From NCBI GenBank assembly GCA_963708135.1, contig OY970192.1, positions 4,992,001-5,056,000 of the forward strand: DNA of 64,000 nt. Direction: 5' to 3'. A program made the position numbers and the translations under genes. The notes under the pieces are model-generated. The model was not told the DNA's origin, made no database searches, and saw only the letters and a list, made by a program, of their open reading frames with translations. This stretch comes from an uncultured Gemmatimonadales bacterium (lineage in GTDB: Bacteria > Gemmatimonadota > Gemmatimonadetes > Longimicrobiales > RSA9). Position 1 is the first letter of the stretch; each line of letters begins with the position of its first letter. Shown here piece after piece: positions 19,844-26,473 of the stretch.

Positions 19844-20494
19844 ATGCCGAAGCCGACGCAGAAGGAGATCGCCCGCGCGCTGCTCGAGCGCCATGGCAGG
19901 ACGTTCGCCGCGGAGCTCGGCATCCGCATCGAGCGGACCACCCCCTCGCCCCTGTTCCGCCTGCTCTGCGCCGCGCTCCTCTTCAGCGCGCGCATCGGCG
20001 CCGATCTGGCCCTCGCGGCCGCGCGGGCGCTGGCCGATGCCGGGTGGACCACGCCGCGCAAGATGGCGGATGCCACCTGGGCGAGGCGCACGAAGGTGCT
20101 CAACCGGGCCGGCTACGCGCGCTATGACGAGAGCACGTCGCGCATGCTCGAGGACACGTCCGAGCTGCTGCTCGAGAAGTACCGCGGCGACCTGCGGAAG
20201 CTGCGCGAGGCCGCCGCGCGCGACCCCGTCGAGGAGGCCCGGCTGCTCCAGGAGTTCAAGGGCATCGGCCCCGTGGGCGCGGCCATCTTCCTCAGGGAGG
20301 TGCAGGGCGCCTGGGACGAGGTCTACCCGTTCGTGGACGACCCTGCCCGCGACGGCGCCCGGGCGCTGGGCCTGCCCACCGACGCCGCGTCGCTGGCGAA
20401 GCTGGTCTCCCGCGCCGACTTTCCCCGCCTCGTGGCCGCCCTCGTGCGCACCCGCCTGGCCGGCGACGCCGATGAGGTGCTCGCCGCCGCCTGA
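19844..20494 (+). CDS. HhH-motif endonuclease/glycosylase-like hypothetical protein
   Basis: End of ORF 16490..20494 from MPKPTQKEIA; LFSARIGA, GYARYDE, FKGIGPVGAAIFLREVQ helix-hairpin-helix; GGAGGAG RBS. Confidence 0.75.
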   Translation: MPKPTQKEIARALLERHGRTFAAELGIRIERTTPSPLFRLLCAALLFSARIGADLALAAARALADAGWTTPRKMADATWARRTKVLNRAGYARYDESTSRMLEDTSELLLEKYRGDLRKLREAAARDPVEEARLLQEFKGIGPVGAAIFLREVQGAWDEVYPFVDDPARDGARALGLPTDAASLAKLVSRADFPRLVAALVRTRLAGDADEVLAAA

Positions 20495-20524
20495 GCCACC
20501 GCGCGTGAGGCTGAATGCGTCCTG

Positions 20525-20810
20525 TCCGCGCCGGATCGTCGCGCGCCGTCCGCGCCGCATCGGCCCGCGAGGGGAGGAAAGTCCCCACGCGTCGGCCCTT
20601 GAATCGACGATTGGGGACTTGACTGCGAATAGCGCGGCAAAGTCCCCAATCGTTCCCATGGTCCTGCGGCCCGTGGGGAGTTGACAACGAATAGCGCGGT
20701 CAACTCCCCAACCGTCGCCGAGCCGGGGCACGCGTGGGGAGTTCACGGCGGCCGGCGCACGCAGCGGCCGGGGCCCTGGCCGGCGCGACGCCGAACGGAT
20801 CCGCGACCCG
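20525..20810. repeat. Dispersed multi-palindrome intergenic element, copy 1
   Basis: Two 37-bp units TGGGGASTTGAC-N13-GKCAASTCCCCA at 20612 and 20674 plus flanking half units; homologous to 52122-52405. Confidence 0.8.
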
Positions 20811-20874
20811 GGGTGGGCGGGGCCGCGTGGGCCTGAATCCCGCCGCCGCGCGCGTGCTCCCACCCCGCAATCGC

Positions 20875-21927
20875 CTAGTCGTCCTGGTCAGCCGTGACGC
20901 CTTCGACGAGCGGAATCACCTCCTGCGCGAAGCGCTGCATCTCCTCCAGCTGTGGCGAGAACTGGAGGAGCAGCAGGTCGAGGCCGGCGTCCTCGAACGC
21001 GCGGATCCGCTCGGCGATCTGCTCGGGCGTGCCCACGAGCCCGCTGCGGAGCCCGCGGTTGGAGACCGAGTAGTCCTGGAGCGAGATGCGCTGCTCGAGC
21101 TTGGTGTTGCCGATCCAGTCCTGGTAGTTGGCGTAGCCGCGCGAGCTCTGGCGCACGTCGGTGATGCGCTCGACCTCGCGCGCGGCCTCCGCCTCCGTCG
21201 CCCGGCAGACCACGAAGCCGGCCGCGCCGAACGTGAGCGGCGCGAGGCCCTCGTGCACTGCCCGCCGCGCCCGCATGTCGGCGACCTTCGCCGCGATGCG
21301 CTCGGGCGGATCGCCGTGCATGACGTAGGCGTCGCAGGCCCGGGCGATGAGGGACTTGCCCGCTTCCGACTCGCCGCCGGCGTAGATGGTCGGGCGAGGT
21401 CGCCGCACCGGCTTCGGCTCGAGCGCCGTGTCCTCGACCGTATAGTACTTCCCCTCGTAGGAGAAGCGCGGCTGCTTCCACACGCCATCGACCACGTCGA
21501 GCCACTCGGCGGTGCGCGCGTAGCGATCGTCGTGCGGATCGAACTGTACGCCGTACTTGCGGGCCTCCGTTGCCCACCAGGCGGAGACGACGTTGAGCGC
21601 CAGCCGGCCGCCCGAGATGTGGTCGATGCAGGCCGCCTGCTTGGCGAGCAGCGCGGGCTGATGGAACGTGGGCCTCACGGCGACCATGAGCTCGAGCCGC
21701 TCCGTGACCGCCGCCAGCGCCGCGGCGGTCGTCCACGCGTCCAGCGAGGGCGCGTCCTCGCCCTTGATGTCGTTCAGGTTGAGCTCGGCGATGAGGGTCA
21801 GGTCGAAGCCGATCTGCTCGCTCGTACGGGCGAGGCGGGCGACGTAGTCCCACGTCGCCTGCATCCGCTCGTCCTCGACGTTCCGCAGCCAGCCGCCGAA
21901 TACCGGGAGCCAGTAGCCGTATCGCAT
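20875..21927 (-). CDS. Luciferase-like (LLM) flavin-dependent monooxygenase, SsuD/SfnG-like
   Basis: MRYGYWLPVFGG, GFDLTLIAE, LELMVAVRP, DHISGGRLALNVVSAW, IYAGGESE, GLVGTPEQIAERI. Confidence 0.9.
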   Translation of the reverse strand: MRYGYWLPVFGGWLRNVEDERMQATWDYVARLARTSEQIGFDLTLIAELNLNDIKGEDAPSLDAWTTAAALAAVTERLELMVAVRPTFHQPALLAKQAACIDHISGGRLALNVVSAWWATEARKYGVQFDPHDDRYARTAEWLDVVDGVWKQPRFSYEGKYYTVEDTALEPKPVRRPRPTIYAGGESEAGKSLIARACDAYVMHGDPPERIAAKVADMRARRAVHEGLAPLTFGAAGFVVCRATEAEAAREVERITDVRQSSRGYANYQDWIGNTKLEQRISLQDYSVSNRGLRSGLVGTPEQIAERIRAFEDAGLDLLLLQFSPQLEEMQRFAQEVIPLVEGVTADQDD

Positions 21928-22889
21928 CACGCCGCCTCCCGCTCGAGCCAGTCCACGAGCCGCGCGAACGGGTCGAAGCCGACGACGCGCGGCGCGTCCG
22001 CCACGAAGTTCGAGAGCGCGTTCACGTCGTAGTAGACGAGCCGGTCGTCGCGCGCATCGACCATGTACTCGACGCCGCCGATCTCGATGCCCGCCGCGTC
22101 CATGATCCGCTCGACCGCGGCCACGACCTCGGGCGGCGGCTCGTAGCCCTCGACGCGCAGCCCGTTCTTCGGCGCATCGACCGCGCAGGCGGCGCGGGCG
22201 AGCTCCGCGCCGCCCACGGTCTGGCAGACGTCCGCGGGGCAGAGGTTGAAGGAGTCGCCGTCGGTGTAGATGCGGATGGCATAGAGGTAGCGCCCGCCCA
22301 GCACCTCGACACGCACGATGCGGCCGTCCTTCGCCGGGACGTACTCCTGCACGAGCGCGGTCGAGTCGATGCCCAGGTCGATCGCCCCCGCGGCGGCCGC
22401 CGCGGCGAGCTGCGCGGGCGTGTCGAAGCGCACGATGCCCGCGCCGCTGCCGCCGATGTTCGGCTTGACGACCACGGGGAAGCGCAGTCCCTCGGCCGCC
22501 GCGGTCGCGCGGCGGGGATCGCTGATCACTCTCGCCTTCGGGAAGGGCAGCCCCAGCTCCGCCAGCAGGTCGAGCTGGCGCGCCTTCGACAGCTCCGTCG
22601 TGAACGCGCGGTGGCCGTTCACCACCCGCACGCCGTGCCGCTCCAGGTGCGCCAGGTAGTGCAGCGTGTAGAAGATCGCCCGGCCGCGGCCGCGCAGATA
22701 CGCGGACGGGCTCATGCGGTTGAACACCAGCGCGTACGGCGGCGGCCCGTCGGACGGCTCGAAGAGGTGCTCGTCCGTGTGCAGCCGGACGTGCGGAATG
22801 CCCCGCCGCTCCAGCTCCGCGAAGAGCGGCTTGAACCAGTCCGGGTGCTCGTAGTAGACCGCCAGCGGGCGGCTCTCGGTGATCGGCAT
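21927..22889 (-). CDS. ATP-grasp ligase (RimK/glutathione-synthase-like)
   Basis: FPVVVKPNIGGSGAGI, VQEY, GGVEY, YYDVNALSNF; AGGAG RBS; stop overlaps the LLM start. Confidence 0.85.
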   Translation of the reverse strand: MPITESRPLAVYYEHPDWFKPLFAELERRGIPHVRLHTDEHLFEPSDGPPPYALVFNRMSPSAYLRGRGRAIFYTLHYLAHLERHGVRVVNGHRAFTTELSKARQLDLLAELGLPFPKARVISDPRRATAAAEGLRFPVVVKPNIGGSGAGIVRFDTPAQLAAAAAAGAIDLGIDSTALVQEYVPAKDGRIVRVEVLGGRYLYAIRIYTDGDSFNLCPADVCQTVGGAELARAACAVDAPKNGLRVEGYEPPPEVVAAVERIMDAAGIEIGGVEYMVDARDDRLVYYDVNALSNFVADAPRVVGFDPFARLVDWLEREAA

Positions 22890-22946
22890 GGGCTCCTGGG
22901 GGCTCGGGTTCGGGACTCGGGACTCGGGATTCGGGACTCGGACACG

Positions 22947-22984
22947 AAAAAAAACCCGGCCCTCTCGCGGGGAGAGGGCCGGGT
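22947..22984 (-). terminator. Rho-independent terminator in the 5' leader of the ATP-grasp/LLM operon (attenuator)
   Basis: Minus strand ACCCGGCCCTCTC-CCCGC-GAGAGGGCCGGGT with an 8-U tail, ~60 nt upstream of the ATP-grasp start. Confidence 0.9.
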
Positions 22985-23006
22985 CGGTCCGCCGAGCTTC
23001 GCTCGG

Positions 23007-23120
23007 CTAGCGCATGCCACCCGCACGCGCGCCGCCCGTCTCTCCCACGGGAGAGCCGCGCATGCACATGCAACACGCGCACATGGGCAGGGCGTTCGGC
23101 GTTCGGTGGCTTCCGTTCAT
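23007..23120 (-). CDS. Putative Cys/Met-sensing leader peptide, 37 aa (MNGSHRTPNALPMCACCMCMRGSPVGETGGARAGGMR)
   Basis: 7 of 8 consecutive codons (23061-23084) are Cys/Met; stop lies ~22 nt before the terminator stem; the ORF overlaps the alternative pairing segments. Confidence 0.75.
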   Translation of the reverse strand: MNGSHRTPNALPMCACCMCMRGSPVGETGGARAGGMR

Positions 23121-23160
23121 GATCGCTCGGGTTCGATGGACACCACGGGCACGGCCGACC

Positions 23161-23189
23161 ATTCTCGCGAATCCTGGTCGCCGGCGCAA
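23161..23189 (-). promoter_or_regulatory. Sigma70-like promoter for the leader transcript
   Basis: Minus strand TTGCGC-17 nt-GAGAAT, 40 nt upstream of the leader ATG. Confidence 0.6.
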
Positions 23190-23221
23190 GGTTCCGCGAG
23201 GCGACGTCGCCTCGTGGCCGT

Positions 23222-24877
23222 CTACTTCTCGAGTGTTCCGACCGCGCCACCGCCCGCGACGGGGGGGGCGCTCCGGGGCACCGCGCGCATTGCGGCGCTC
23301 GTCGTGGTCGCGTTCTGCTGCGTGGTCAACGCGCCGAGCGTGCCGTCGTTCGCGAGGTTGAAGACCACCGACGCGAAGGCCCTGGACACGGTCTCGAGCA
23401 CGTCTGGATCGTTGTCGTCGAGGTTGTCGCACCACAGGAAGGGCCGATCCACGCACCCGCCATCGGTGCTCGGGATGTTGCCCTCGTAGTTGCCCGTGGA
23501 GCCGCCGAACAGGTCGACATCCGCTTGCGGCTTGCAGCAGTCCTGCCCGGTCAGGATGCCGGTGTTGGGCACGCCGACGAGGCCGAAGGAATAGGAGTCG
23601 GTGCCGATGCTGCTCCGGTACTCGAAGGGCAGCCCCATCCGGGTGAAGTAGCTCGCGAAGTAGTCGTTGCCGACCTTCGACCCCGGAATCACGTTGGGCG
23701 GGAACTTGGTCTGGGAGTTTGCGGGATCCGCAATGGCGTACACGTAGTTCGGCGTCGCGGTGACGTCGGCATCGACATCGAAGGCGATCCTGGCGAGCTC
23801 GTCCGCCGGGAGGTGCCTCGTGTAGTATACGGATCCGAACAATCCCAGCTCCTCGCCGCCGAACCAGATGTAGCGCAGCTGATTGCGGGTCCTCGTGTTC
23901 GCCATCCTGAGCGCGATCTCGAGGATCGTGGCCGACCCGGAGGCGTTGTCGAGCATCCCCGCCCCGTAGATGGCGTCGAGGTGCGCATCGACCACGACCA
24001 CGTGACTCGAATCGCCGTACGGCGAGTCGGCGATCAGGTTGTAGTCCTCCCGATTGGGATCGATGATCGACTTGACCTCCAGGTGTACCGTGACCGGGCC
24101 CGATTTCGCCTGTGAATCGAGGCTGTCCCCAACGGCGTAGGAGGCCAGGCAGACGACGGGTACGCCGTGATCCTGGAGTCCACACCAGGTGCCTGCCGCG
24201 GTGCGCCCGGTCTGGCCCTCGTTGAAGATGATCACGCCGGATGCCTTCGCCGCGACCGCCAGCGTCACCTTCTGATCGAAGGTGCAGGTCCCCCGCTGTA
24301 CGAGGGCGATGTTGCCCGGCGGGAAACCCGTGAAATCCGACGCGCTGCACCCGCTGGCCGAGCTCGGGCTCGCCGTCGCGGGTATGACAATGCCCCCGGC
24401 CGGCGTGATCGCGGCCGTCACATCGCCATCGCCGGAGCCGGCCTGCACGGCGAAATCCGACGGCAGCCTGAAGTCCCGTGCAGTCGGCGAGACCTCGGCG
24501 AAGGCCGGCGTGCCGTCCAGCGCCGTGTACGGGAAGGTGTAGCTCTGGATCGTCACCCTGTAGCCGGCGTCGCGCATCAGGCCGGCGACGTAGTTGACGG
24601 ACGCCAGGTACCCCGGCTCGCCGGAATTGCGCGAGGCGTGCCCGTCGGGGCCGGGGTTGGCATCCGCGATCTGCTGGAACGTCACCATGTGCGCCCAGAG
24701 CTCGTCCTTGTTGATGGATGCGAGGAGCCTGGACTCCGCGCTGTCGCGAGCGGCGCTCGTGGTGTCCACGACCGTGGTGTCGCCGCCCGGGGGCTGCGCC
24801 GTGTCCGTAATCGTGGGCGCGCGGTCGCAGCCGACGAGAGCGAGCACCGCCACGGCGGTCAGGAATCTATTCGACAT
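23222..24877 (-). CDS. M28-family aminopeptidase with PA domain, probable lipoprotein
   Basis: LALVGC lipobox; IALVQRGTCTFDQK (PA domain); DAHLD, DNASGS, GGEELGLFGS. Confidence 0.9.
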   Translation of the reverse strand: MSNRFLTAVAVLALVGCDRAPTITDTAQPPGGDTTVVDTTSAARDSAESRLLASINKDELWAHMVTFQQIADANPGPDGHASRNSGEPGYLASVNYVAGLMRDAGYRVTIQSYTFPYTALDGTPAFAEVSPTARDFRLPSDFAVQAGSGDGDVTAAITPAGGIVIPATASPSSASGCSASDFTGFPPGNIALVQRGTCTFDQKVTLAVAAKASGVIIFNEGQTGRTAAGTWCGLQDHGVPVVCLASYAVGDSLDSQAKSGPVTVHLEVKSIIDPNREDYNLIADSPYGDSSHVVVVDAHLDAIYGAGMLDNASGSATILEIALRMANTRTRNQLRYIWFGGEELGLFGSVYYTRHLPADELARIAFDVDADVTATPNYVYAIADPANSQTKFPPNVIPGSKVGNDYFASYFTRMGLPFEYRSSIGTDSYSFGLVGVPNTGILTGQDCCKPQADVDLFGGSTGNYEGNIPSTDGGCVDRPFLWCDNLDDNDPDVLETVSRAFASVVFNLANDGTLGALTTQQNATTTSAAMRAVPRSAPPVAGGGAVGTLEK

Positions 24878-25030
24878 GAAGCTCACTTGAAGAGGATCGA
24901 CGACCGCACGCCTGTCCCGTGGAGTGGGCGCCCCGAGGACGCTTGAATCTACGGCCGGGGTGGGCACATTGTTCCGCACGCGGCCCGTCCGCCGCGGCGC
25001 TGGGGATGGAGTAGCGAAGCGGCGCCGTGT

Positions 25031-26473
25031 TCAGCCGAGCGAGGCTTCGCACGCGCGCGCGAGTGCCCGGACGAACCCCGCGCTGTGATCCGTGCCCATC
25101 CGCGTGGCCGTGCCCGAGTCCGAGGACCCCGATCCCGACGCCGCGCCCCCCGAGCCCCGACCCCCGAGTCCCGCATCCCGCTCCGCAGCCAGGAACGGAT
25201 CCATCACCGTGGACCGGAGCACCACCAGCCCCTCCGGCCCGCTGGCCTTCCACTCCTCGGGCGTGCACACGCCGAGCCGCTCGAGCACCGGGTCCACCGC
25301 GCCGTCGTACATCGGCGTCTGGAACCGGGTGCGGGTGATGATGTAGTCGGGCGCCGCGCCCGGCCGGCCGAGCGACATCTGCGCGTAGATCCGCTCGTTG
25401 AGCCCGTTCAGCTCCTCGAGCGAGTTGAGCGAGGGGTGCGCCACCACCCAGCAGACGATGTTGATGTCGGGCTCGGGCAGCAGCACGAGGTGGAACTCGC
25501 CGAGATCCTCGTCCGCCAGCGCGCCGTAGAGCAGTCGCGCCCCGGGGTCGATGGCCACGAGCTGGCGCGCGCGCCGCTCCTTCAGCAGGAACGCGCCGGC
25601 CGGGTAGGGGATGTAGCCGAGCTTGTGCGGGTCGATCGTCACGCTGTCCGCCTCGCCCAGCGCCGCCACGCCGGCCACCCACTCGTCGCTCGGCCAGTCG
25701 GTGCCCATCTCGGCGCGGATCTCTTCCGCAGGGCGACGTCGCCCTTCCGCGTTACGCGTGACCGCCGCCGCGTAGCCGCCGTACGCCGCGTCCGAGTGGA
25801 TATGGTAGCTGACGCCGAGCTCGCGCTCCGCGCGGCGGCGCACCTCGAGCACGAGGTCGAGCCGGTCCACGGCGCTCTCCTCCGTCGTGCCGCACACGCT
25901 CACGCACGCCTGGATCGGCACGCGCCGCTCCGTCAGGCGGAGCACCGTCCGCCACAGAGCGTCCGGGTCCATGCGGTAGCGCACGTCCACGGGGACGTAG
26001 ACGAGCTGGTTCGAGCCGATGCCGAGGGCGCGCACGATCTTCTCCCAGGAGTAGTGCGCGGTGGCGGCGACGAGCACGACGCCCGCGGGCAGCGGGTCCC
26101 CGAAGGCGGCGGTGAGACGTCGCATGTACTCCTGGTAGCCGAGGGCGTTCAGCGAGTGCTCGTGCAGGGCGCGCTTCACGTCGGCCGGCGGCGCGGAGGC
26201 CCACAGCGCGCCCCACAGGTCGAGCGTGGCCGCGTTGGAGATGTTGAGCAGCTCCCAGAGCCCGAGCCGGTCCAGCCGTTCGCGGCCGCCGCCCGGCACG
26301 TCCACCTCGAGCGTGACGCCGAGTGCCTGCGCCGCGCCGGAGGCGGCTACCGGCAGGTAGGCGAGGTTGCGCGCGATCCAGAGCGCCTCGAGGTGACGGG
26401 CGAGGCCTCGATGGCCACGTTGCGGTCCCAGGAACCACGCGTAGAGCGCCTCGCGGGTGTCGTCCGTCGTCAT
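25031..26473 (-). pseudogene. Group II PLP-dependent (tyrosine-decarboxylase-like) decarboxylase with internal deletions
   Basis: HYSWEK, GTTEESAVD, HSDAAYGGY, DSVTIDPHKLGY (PLP Lys) are present; an out-of-frame NVAIEASPVT remnant near 26395-26425 and the missing EGS..G segment indicate lost blocks. Confidence 0.7.

Follow-up and report, generated by a model that had tools for sequence, protein, structure and literature searches.

What decides whether RNA polymerase enters the two-gene operon of an ATP-grasp ligase and an SsuD/SfnG-like monooxygenase in a Gemmatimonadota genome is the question raised by the leader described here. The window, i.e. the whole stretch of 64,000 nt that was analysed, belongs to an uncultured Gemmatimonadales bacterium (assembly GCA_963708135.1, contig OY970192.1, positions 4,992,001 to 5,056,000 of the forward strand); the leader lies on its minus strand, immediately upstream of the operon, and had been described in an earlier sequence-only reading as an attenuator sensing both cysteine and methionine. 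The analysis supports a ribosome-mediated (leader-peptide) transcription attenuator, a reading to which a probability of about 85% is assigned: the locus combines a short upstream open reading frame (uORF), a run of cognate codons, an intrinsic terminator, a predicted antiterminator and codons placed so that a waiting ribosome would mask the first of the pairing segments. The elements, in window coordinates, are as follows.

23161..23189, minus strand: candidate promoter, recognised by its letters only, with TTGCGC at 23189-23184, a 17-nt spacer and GAGAAT at 23166-23161
23007..23120, minus strand: leader peptide uORF, with ATG at 23120, TAG at 23009-23007 and 37 codons plus stop, MNGSHRTPNALPMCACCMCMRGSPVGETGGARAGGMR
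23061..23084, minus strand: regulatory run ATG TGC GCG TGT TGC ATG TGC ATG (MCACCMCM), codons 13-20, with 4 Cys and 3 Met in 8 codons
23055-23049, minus strand: segment 1, CTCTCCC
23046-23040, minus strand: segment 2, GGGAGAG
23040..23055, minus strand: hairpin 1:2 (anti-antiterminator), CUCUCC 23055-23050 with GGAGAG 23045-23040, 6 bp and a 4-nt loop, -9.0 kcal/mol
23031..23046, minus strand: segment 2 with its G-rich extension (GGGAGAG ACGGGCGGC), the strand predicted to pair with the terminator 5' arm as antiterminator
23010..23030, minus strand: middle hairpin within the 3' part of the uORF, 8 bp and a 5-nt loop, -15.6 kcal/mol
22991..23007, minus strand: stop-codon hairpin, 7 bp and a GAA loop, beginning at the last base of TAG, -13.0 kcal/mol
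22947..22985, minus strand: intrinsic terminator, a 14-pair stem (22985-22953, 10 G-C) with the 5-nt loop CCCGC and U8 at 22954-22947, -30.3 kcal/mol
22976-22970, minus strand: segment 3, CUCUCCC, a copy of segment 1 that spans the end of the terminator 5' arm and the loop

Most of this anatomy had been recognised from the letters alone: the uORF with its MCACCMCM run, segment 1 starting 5 nt after that run and followed by segment 2, the small hairpin at the stop codon, and the fact that the uORF is annotated only as the tail of a 447-aa ORF (23007..24350) are all as described. Other details needed correction. The helix between segments 1 and 2 exists, but it has 6 bp and a 4-nt loop rather than 7 bp, since the two segments lie only 2 nt apart and a seventh pair would leave a 2-nt loop; the terminator, its U8 and the CTCTCCC copy are there, while the stem has 14 pairs instead of 13; and the middle hairpin was not mentioned. 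Segments 2 and 3 are thus about 55 nt apart with two conserved hairpins between them, and the uORF continues 30 nt beyond segment 2. The last regulatory codons of the run are 6-9 nt from segment 1, the final Cys/Met codon being 6 nt away in the geometric count. The duplex of the segment-2 strand with 22987-22967 has a predicted energy of -26.2 kcal/mol, and the 181-nt leader as a whole has a minimum free energy of -99.3 kcal/mol (z = -4.0; none of 200 shuffles was as stable).

The arrangement is not a product of chance. The genome (5.45 Mb, 72% G+C) was scanned in all six frames for windows of 8 stop-free codons with at least 5 Cys+Met, at least 2 of them Cys, and for a T-run of at least 5 T within 260 nt downstream. 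Only 2 of the 112 Cys/Met-rich windows have such a T-run: this site and contig position 4417891, ahead of a MetY-like gene. The codon background, taken from 1325 long ORFs with GC3 > 0.9, is 0.68% for Cys and 1.67% for Met.

The arrangement is also conserved. Homologues of the ATP-grasp gene are close (50-78% identity) in 20 related loci and distant (30-34%) in 5 more, and in 22 of these 25 loci (L002-L026) the 450 nt upstream contain a Cys-containing uORF followed by a hairpin and a T-run terminator, a positive outcome of the test that the sequence-only reading had proposed for homologous ATP-grasp/monooxygenase operons. Of the remaining three, L007 is truncated by the end of its contig, L021 is masked with N, and L014 showed no such arrangement. 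The genomes of L014, L017 and L018 are flagged as unpublished; these loci are in line with the others, and none of the claims depends on them alone. The homologous uORFs consist of an N-terminal part of 5-12 residues and then the Cys/Met run (1 Cys and 3 Met codons in L019), and the reading frame, the ATG and the position of the stop are preserved. Apart from that run, the peptides share the residues (S/L)PxGE, which are encoded where hairpin 1 and the G-rich strand lie, and they differ in the length and sequence of their C-terminal parts.

At spots comparable to that of the candidate promoter, TTGAC(A/G)-N17-TAxxxT is seen by eye upstream of the leaders of relatives. By eye, too, L008-L011, L013, L015 and L019 have a hexamer resembling a -10 element (TAxxxT) whose end lies 6-8 nt upstream of the uORF ATG, and for this reason the leaders of these loci may be leaderless.

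A second sensor stands before some of these leaders. In 4 of 6 relatives scanned, an S-adenosylmethionine riboswitch of the SAM-II type (RF00521, 38.9-45.2 bits, gathering score 36) lies in tandem upstream of the leader (L002 1094-1165; L003 2690-2765, minus strand; L012 1190-1266; L020 1193-1267), followed by its own hairpin and, in L003, also by a T-run, both judged by eye. This tandem is an independent sign that the operon answers to sulfur amino-acid status. A SAM-II riboswitch next to a Cys or Cys/Met leader amounts to two sulfur sensors in series. RF00521 is absent from 20000-26000 of the window even at E <= 10, and all of Rfam gave only noise in that region at the same threshold.

The RNA scaffold of the leader (the chassis) was described from covariance-model alignments, used instead of MAFFT alignments, which put the terminators out of register. 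A first model, seeded from the window's own leader, aligned 11 orthologous leaders, from which model R2 was built. Of 151 genomes of the order, 69 give matches to R2 at E <= 1e-3, often 2-3 each; in a sample of 151 from the phylum as a whole, 9 do so at E <= 1e-4, so that the chassis belongs chiefly to this order. R2 finds four full-length copies in this genome: the leader under study, at 135 bits, and three more on contig C1.

4417736-4417890, minus strand (L032): second copy, 88.7 bits, with uORF MFARQAMVMCTCMCGSPVGEADG..., 21 nt upstream of a MetY-like pyridoxal-phosphate enzyme (PF01053)
5250098-5250241, minus strand (L033): third copy, 33.6 bits, upstream of tRNA-Asn(GTT)
1416210-1416323, plus strand (L034): fourth copy, 27.7 bits, with six consecutive Thr codons MRAKRIRTTTTTTRPP..., upstream of a threonyl-tRNA synthetase (ThrRS) gene whose product has TGS, tRNA_SAD and class II core domains

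The uORF of the third copy is without a Cys/Met run, and Asn is encoded in it two codons before segment 1; attenuation by a leader peptide would be unusual ahead of a tRNA gene.

That the uORFs sense amino acids is argued most strongly by the match between their codons and the downstream gene. The following correspondence is based on a covariance-model alignment of 42 leaders (A7) and on 48 further loci with 52 full-length chassis hits.

Mixed Cys/Met: the ATP-grasp gene (22 rows of A7)
Mixed Cys/Met: MetY-like PF01053 enzymes (13 rows by N-terminal likeness, 4 of them checked with Pfam, including the second copy of this genome)
Mixed Cys/Met: sulfite reductase (L063)
Mixed Cys/Met: aspartokinase (L060)
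Mixed Cys/Met: MetN-type ABC ATPase with NIL domain (L185, L186)
Mixed Cys/Met: ThrC-like PALP enzymes (L148, L176)
Met only, 4-6 Met codons and no Cys: homoserine dehydrogenase (L049, L056) and a MetX-like hydrolase (L043)
Met only, 7 Met codons: homoserine dehydrogenase (L175)
Met/Thr: aspartokinase (L153)
Thr/Cys/Met: aspartokinase (L167)
Met/Thr/Ile: homoserine kinase-like GHMP kinases (L152, L183, L184)
Six Thr codons: ThrRS (L034, this genome)
Leu-rich: LeuA-like synthases (L190, L192)
Cys only, in tandem pairs: sodium:dicarboxylate-family symporters (L168, 101-242 and 297-451; L174, 1301-1425 and 1115-1257, minus strand)

A single Cys-only hit precedes a symporter of the same family in L162, and tandem Cys-only attenuators are likewise seen in L166 and L181; the symporter behind the tandem leaders of L168 and L174 is possibly a cystine or cysteine transporter. 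A variant of the chassis stands before an acetolactate-synthase-like enzyme in L191.

Variation among the leaders points in the same direction. The MetY leaders within one genus have the order of C and M permuted and the composition kept, with N-terminal residues free to vary. The Cys codons of the A7 leaders are TGC and TGT in a ratio of 86:48, so that the rare TGT makes up 36% (48/134) as compared with 8% in the likely genes of this genome; this variation indicates selection on codons and not on RNA sequence.

In 15 of 21 distinct leaders linked to ATP-grasp genes, the 14 codons ahead of segment 1 include at least 2 for Met, with about 0.23 expected. Together with the Met-only leaders that precede methionine-branch genes (L049, L056, L043, L175), this makes Met sensing likely, though not universal: most orthologous leaders carry Met codons and some have none. 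For the leader of the window itself, co-sensing of Met is considered probable.

The RNA structure was assessed on A7. As this alignment was fitted to the model structure, its counts are biased towards that structure; with this proviso, 92.6% of its cells are paired and 31 of 33 pairs show compensatory changes, and controls with the pairing slid along the alignment reach 40-53%. By helix, hairpin 1:2 has 93.1% of cells paired and 5 of 6 pairs compensatory, the middle hairpin 86.4% and 6 of 6, the stop-codon hairpin 86.0% and 7 of 7, and the terminator 97.4% and 13 of 14. As for geometry, the last Cys/Met codon is 2-13 nt before segment 1 in 40 of the 42 leaders, and in 39 of those 40 the distance from segment 2 to the uORF stop is 9-45 nt and that from the stop to the terminator arm 21-47 nt (the frame of L062 was misread in this count). 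A ribosome covers about 12-15 nt ahead of its A site, and with a spacing of 2-13 nt one that waits at the last Cys/Met codons would therefore cover segment 1.

The antiterminator, pairing segments 2 and 3, is not part of the covariance model and was tested separately. With the register fixed (6 bp), 86.3% of cells are paired as compared with 83.4 +/- 0.8% after shuffling and with 58.6-74.9% in slid controls. For 41 distinct leaders, folds free of any register were also computed on transcripts that end before the 3' arm, with segment 1 or the footprint of the ribosome masked; in 40 of them the segment-2 region is paired to 6 nt or more of the 5' arm (mean 10.8 nt), which is the outcome that the sequence-only reading had predicted for a masked segment 1. 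With segment 2 reversed, the mean drops to 8.4 nt, at an average cost of 6.9 kcal/mol. The pairing survives in natural variants: L004 has CUCUCGC as segment 1 and again as segment 3, with GCGGGAG as segment 2, a base of the terminator loop changing together with segment 2, and L076 and L078 have GGGGAG with GCUCCCC. Statistical support for the 2:3 pairing is moderate, and it is mainly the folds that speak for the antiterminator.

Several observations weigh against the attenuator reading, or against parts of it. The aligned sequences are kin, so that Wilcoxon values and the shuffle counts, 0 of 500 both for the overall pairing of A7 and for the fixed 2:3 register, overstate significance. The covariation score of 2:3 in the fixed register is 0.158 as compared with 0.123, and 4 of 500 shuffles reach 0.158, which is weak as statistics. 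Even with the strand reversed, 39 of 41 leaders have 6 nt or more paired; this is a weak control, since GGAGAG reversed remains complementary to CCUCUC. Compared with mononucleotide shuffles, the 2:3 duplex has z < 0 in 18 of 23 loci and p <= 0.05 in only 4 of 23, and much of the pairing is explained by a G-rich strand facing a C-rich arm. Furthermore, when the 3' arm is absent, equilibrium folds form the antiterminator already without a ribosome; the off state must then depend on kinetics or on ribosome occupancy, and the role of hairpin 1:2 can only be kinetic, its -9.0 kcal/mol being far weaker than the -26.2 kcal/mol of the antiterminator. As for expression of the leader, no clear Shine-Dalgarno sequence lies 5' of the uORF, whose ATG is about 40 nt downstream of the proposed -10 element, and the promoter, although spelled as the sequence-only reading gave it, matches the consensus weakly (7 of 12 positions), a consensus scan of 20000-26000 returning 0 promoter-like sites. 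Finally, some ATP-grasp-linked leaders have no Met in the 14 codons before segment 1 (L002/L068, L018) and others a single one (L004, L026, L048, L070).

This last point favours the first alternative, a cysteine-only attenuator in which the ATGs serve as additional start codons in frame or result from constraints on the sequence, for example self-complementary CAUG/UGCA words. The distant loci fit it as well, with Met-free runs of Cys, Thr and Pro in L022-L024 and one Met each in L025 and L026, and so does the fact that the Cys run of the window is itself part of a hairpin in the minimum-energy fold. It is nevertheless unlikely, given the excess of leaders with at least 2 Met codons and the Met-only leaders described above, and given L015, where Met codons also follow the Cys codons.

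Quite improbable is a riboregulator independent of translation, in which the hairpin and the GGAGAGGCGG element bind a metabolite or a protein and the ORF is incidental. An RNA core (CGGCUCUCC...GGAGAGGCGGACGG and CCCGGCCCUCUCC) better conserved than the peptide would suit it, as would the missing Shine-Dalgarno sequence; however, one and the same core serves different pathways and only the codon run upstream of it varies with the pathway, the frame, ATG and stop position are kept, the third-position TGC/TGT variation speaks for selection at the codon level, and no Rfam family was matched, either here or by the other copies in this genome and the acidobacterial leaders described below.

Hardly to be entertained is the idea that the small ORF makes a Cys-rich peptide with a function, such as the precursor of a ribosomal peptide that the ATP-grasp enzyme and the monooxygenase mature, with the terminator setting the ratio of precursor to enzyme: peptide gene, terminator and ATP-grasp enzyme do form the layout of ribosomal peptide clusters, and the ligase matches the peptide maturase model TIGR04187 at E = 6.9e-08, but at 32 bits as compared with a cut-off of 350, which places it outside that family, and the same chassis and peptide type occurs before MetY, sulfite reductase, aspartokinase and homoserine dehydrogenase genes without an ATP-grasp partner and, with other codons, before ThrRS and LeuA, while the conserved (S/L)PxGE tracks hairpin 1 and the G-rich strand, the C-termini are variable and relatives carry the SAM-II riboswitch in tandem.

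Under ribosome-mediated attenuation, the leader would work as follows. Transcription would begin upstream of 23120 and a ribosome would translate the 37-codon leader. Scarcity of Cys-tRNA, or probably of Met-tRNA, would make the ribosome stall in MCACCMCM and cover CUCUCC 23055-23050, so that hairpin 1:2 could not form; as soon as the 5' arm and loop of the terminator (CCCGGCCCUCUCCC) have been transcribed, the freed GGGAGAG with its G-rich extension would pair with them, the terminator stem would be too late to form, and RNA polymerase would enter the operon. With both amino acids plentiful, the ribosome would reach TAG 23009-23007; there, the local hairpin 1:2 would close quickly behind it, or the ribosome itself would occupy segment 2 and the stop region, and the 14-pair stem with U8 would then form and stop transcription. 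With a tightly coupled ribosome at the stop codon, the polymerase would be about 34 nt further on, close to the terminator loop. Since a stall on either codon would have the same effect, the leader would behave as an OR gate for Cys or Met shortage. This is the trp/his-type logic that the sequence-only reading had put forward, from a stall that masks segment 1 to formation of 2:3 and read-through, and the comparative data support it.

The operon that would be under this control comprises two genes.

21927..22889, minus strand: first gene, RimK-like ATP-grasp ligase, 320 aa, Pfam RimK 7.7e-09, with AGGAG 5 nt before the ATG
20875..21930, minus strand: second gene, luciferase-like monooxygenase (LLM) of the SsuD/SfnG/MsuD group, 351 aa, Pfam Bac_luciferase 6.2e-66

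The ligase reaches 73 bits with its best NCBIfam model, rimK_fam, below the cut-off of 143, and its matches in the Protein Data Bank (PDB) are weak (GshF, RimK, LysX). The start of the LLM gene overlaps the stop codon of the ATP-grasp gene; its product scores 259.3 bits with the SfnG equivalog TIGR04021 (cut-off 382.95), and thus falls outside the dimethylsulfone monooxygenases as that model defines them, and its closest PDB entries are 3rao (455 bits), the alkanesulfonate monooxygenase 8vw6 (377) and SfnG 8t0u (190). The designation as an SsuD/SfnG-type monooxygenase consequently holds at the level of the family, and, with an ATP-grasp enzyme that is only weakly RimK/LysX/GshF-like, the term organosulfur operon is reasonable only at that level too. 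The LLM gene directly follows the ATP-grasp gene in 87 of 105 loci (L002-L144, several phyla), with LLM identities of 63-81%, and the pair is present in Acidobacteriota, Chloroflexota, Armatimonadota, Verrucomicrobiota and others. No report on a pair of an ATP-grasp and an SfnG-like enzyme was found in the literature, subscription journals being outside the coverage of the search.

Leaders rich in Cys/Met codons accompany the ATP-grasp ortholog in Acidobacteriota, Limnocylindrales and Methylomirabilota, too. By reading, a clear Cys or Cys/Met run is present upstream in 23 of 79 loci of other phyla and none in the other 56; an example is the uORF M(A/V)MCCCMCMC...GERPV, found in several Acidobacteriota and one Limnocylindrales record. 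Their chassis is unlike that of Gemmatimonadota: the terminator of the acidobacterial type consists of GGCCGCUC...GAGCGGCC and a U-run, and in the 300 nt upstream of the ATP-grasp gene of L079, L080, L081, L083, L084, L086 and L100 the uORF itself holds GAGCGGCC, identical to the terminator 3' arm, a copy that would act as a direct antiterminator. Behind the terminator, the version of Acidobacteriota and Limnocylindrales has a fourth, related repeat, GGCUGCUC, directly ahead of the gene's ribosome-binding site.

Around the leader, a few other features were noted. The upstream neighbour is a gene for an M28/PA-domain peptidase.

24979-23222, minus strand: M28/PA-domain peptidase gene, ending with TAG at 23224-23222

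A perfect 18-nt palindrome (CGAGGCGAC/GTCGCCTCG, 23197-23214, minus strand) lies 8 nt past its stop, without a U-run, and may be the terminator of that gene or a protein-binding site. Imperfect 8-nt repeats (GTCCCGA-type units) occupy 22901-22942 on the minus strand, between the terminator and the ATP-grasp start, and other short tandem repeats are found near the leaders of relatives.

Most known examples of leader-peptide attenuation respond to Trp, His, Leu, Thr, Phe or Ile/Val in Proteobacteria, with trpL, hisL, thrL, leuL and pheL of enterobacterial amino-acid operons as the classical cases, and methionine and cysteine genes are thought to be controlled by SAM riboswitches, T-boxes and protein regulators. 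A Cys/Met leader with a classical terminator thus fills a missing specificity and represents a simple two-input sensor; the same scaffold with different codon runs offers, in a phylum that has been little studied, a natural mutagenesis series relating codon number, order and distance to sensitivity. Judged from the genes and codons involved, the leader would tag the widespread module of ATP-grasp and SsuD/SfnG-like enzymes as one induced by shortage of sulfur amino acids and may give a lead to its substrate. In a wider perspective, the balance tips slightly towards a lineage-wide attenuator system in which a single chassis is reprogrammed by codon swaps (Cys, Met, Thr, Ile, Leu); it would include what may be the first Met-sensing leaders and the first mixed Cys/Met and Met/Thr OR-gate leaders, with codon mixtures that mirror the branch points of the pathways (Met+Thr for aspartokinase, Cys+Met for MetY), and the ATP-grasp and LLM pair would be an unrecognised salvage module for sulfur amino acids under Cys/Met-leader control in at least 3 phyla on different chassis.

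Searches of the literature, in which subscription journals were mostly outside coverage, found neither ribosome-mediated attenuation with Met or mixed Cys/Met codons nor, with the same coverage, anything on leader-peptide attenuators in Gemmatimonadota (Gemmatimonadetes). In the accessible part of PMC2965389, which came up for leader peptide, cysteine, methionine, attenuator and Acidobacteria, no such leader is described.

Among known systems, the SAM-II riboswitch shares with these leaders the control of methionine/sulfur genes by transcription termination, and even stands in tandem with them in L002, L003, L012 and L020, but it senses its metabolite directly and does not need translation. 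Also among the closest systems are the short ORFs with runs of Cys codons upstream of sulfur and cysteine genes in Actinobacteria, which, according to the accessible portions of these sources, are proposed or shown to respond to cysteine (PMC1262725; Canestrari et al. 2020, bioRxiv 10.1101/834739). A short ORF with a Cys run ahead of sulfur genes is what the two have in common, as far as those portions go. The mycobacterial regions are reported, in the part available, to be without a conserved terminator hairpin (Seliverstov et al. 2005, PMC1262725), and their short ORFs, as described there, are leaderless and poly-Cys, whereas here Cys and Met are interleaved, a 14-pair stem with U8 follows and the ATG lies about 40 nt past the proposed -10; the strong terminator sets this leader apart from the leaderless, terminator-free mycobacterial type. 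The uORFC-8-2 motif before cysS in Rhodobacterales has a conserved Cys uORF, a stem and a U-run, and is read, in the accessible text, as ribosome-mediated attenuation (PMC8632094, Brewer et al. 2021). On that description, the order of Cys uORF, stem and U-run and the attenuation reading are shared with the window; it differs in its structure, in having two tandem Cys codons inside the first stem and no Met, and in occurring only before cysS in one alphaproteobacterial order.

A further close parallel is the trpL/hisL type. Common to both are a short leader, a run of cognate codons, mutually exclusive 1:2, 2:3 and 3:4 pairings, a terminator with a U-run, and a decision that lies in the position of the ribosome. 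The leader described here differs in its Cys and Met codons, in its occurrence in Gemmatimonadota, in a gap of about 55 nt between segments 2 and 3 that holds two conserved hairpins, in a uORF that runs on 30 nt past segment 2, and in the reuse of one chassis, with different codons, for many operons.

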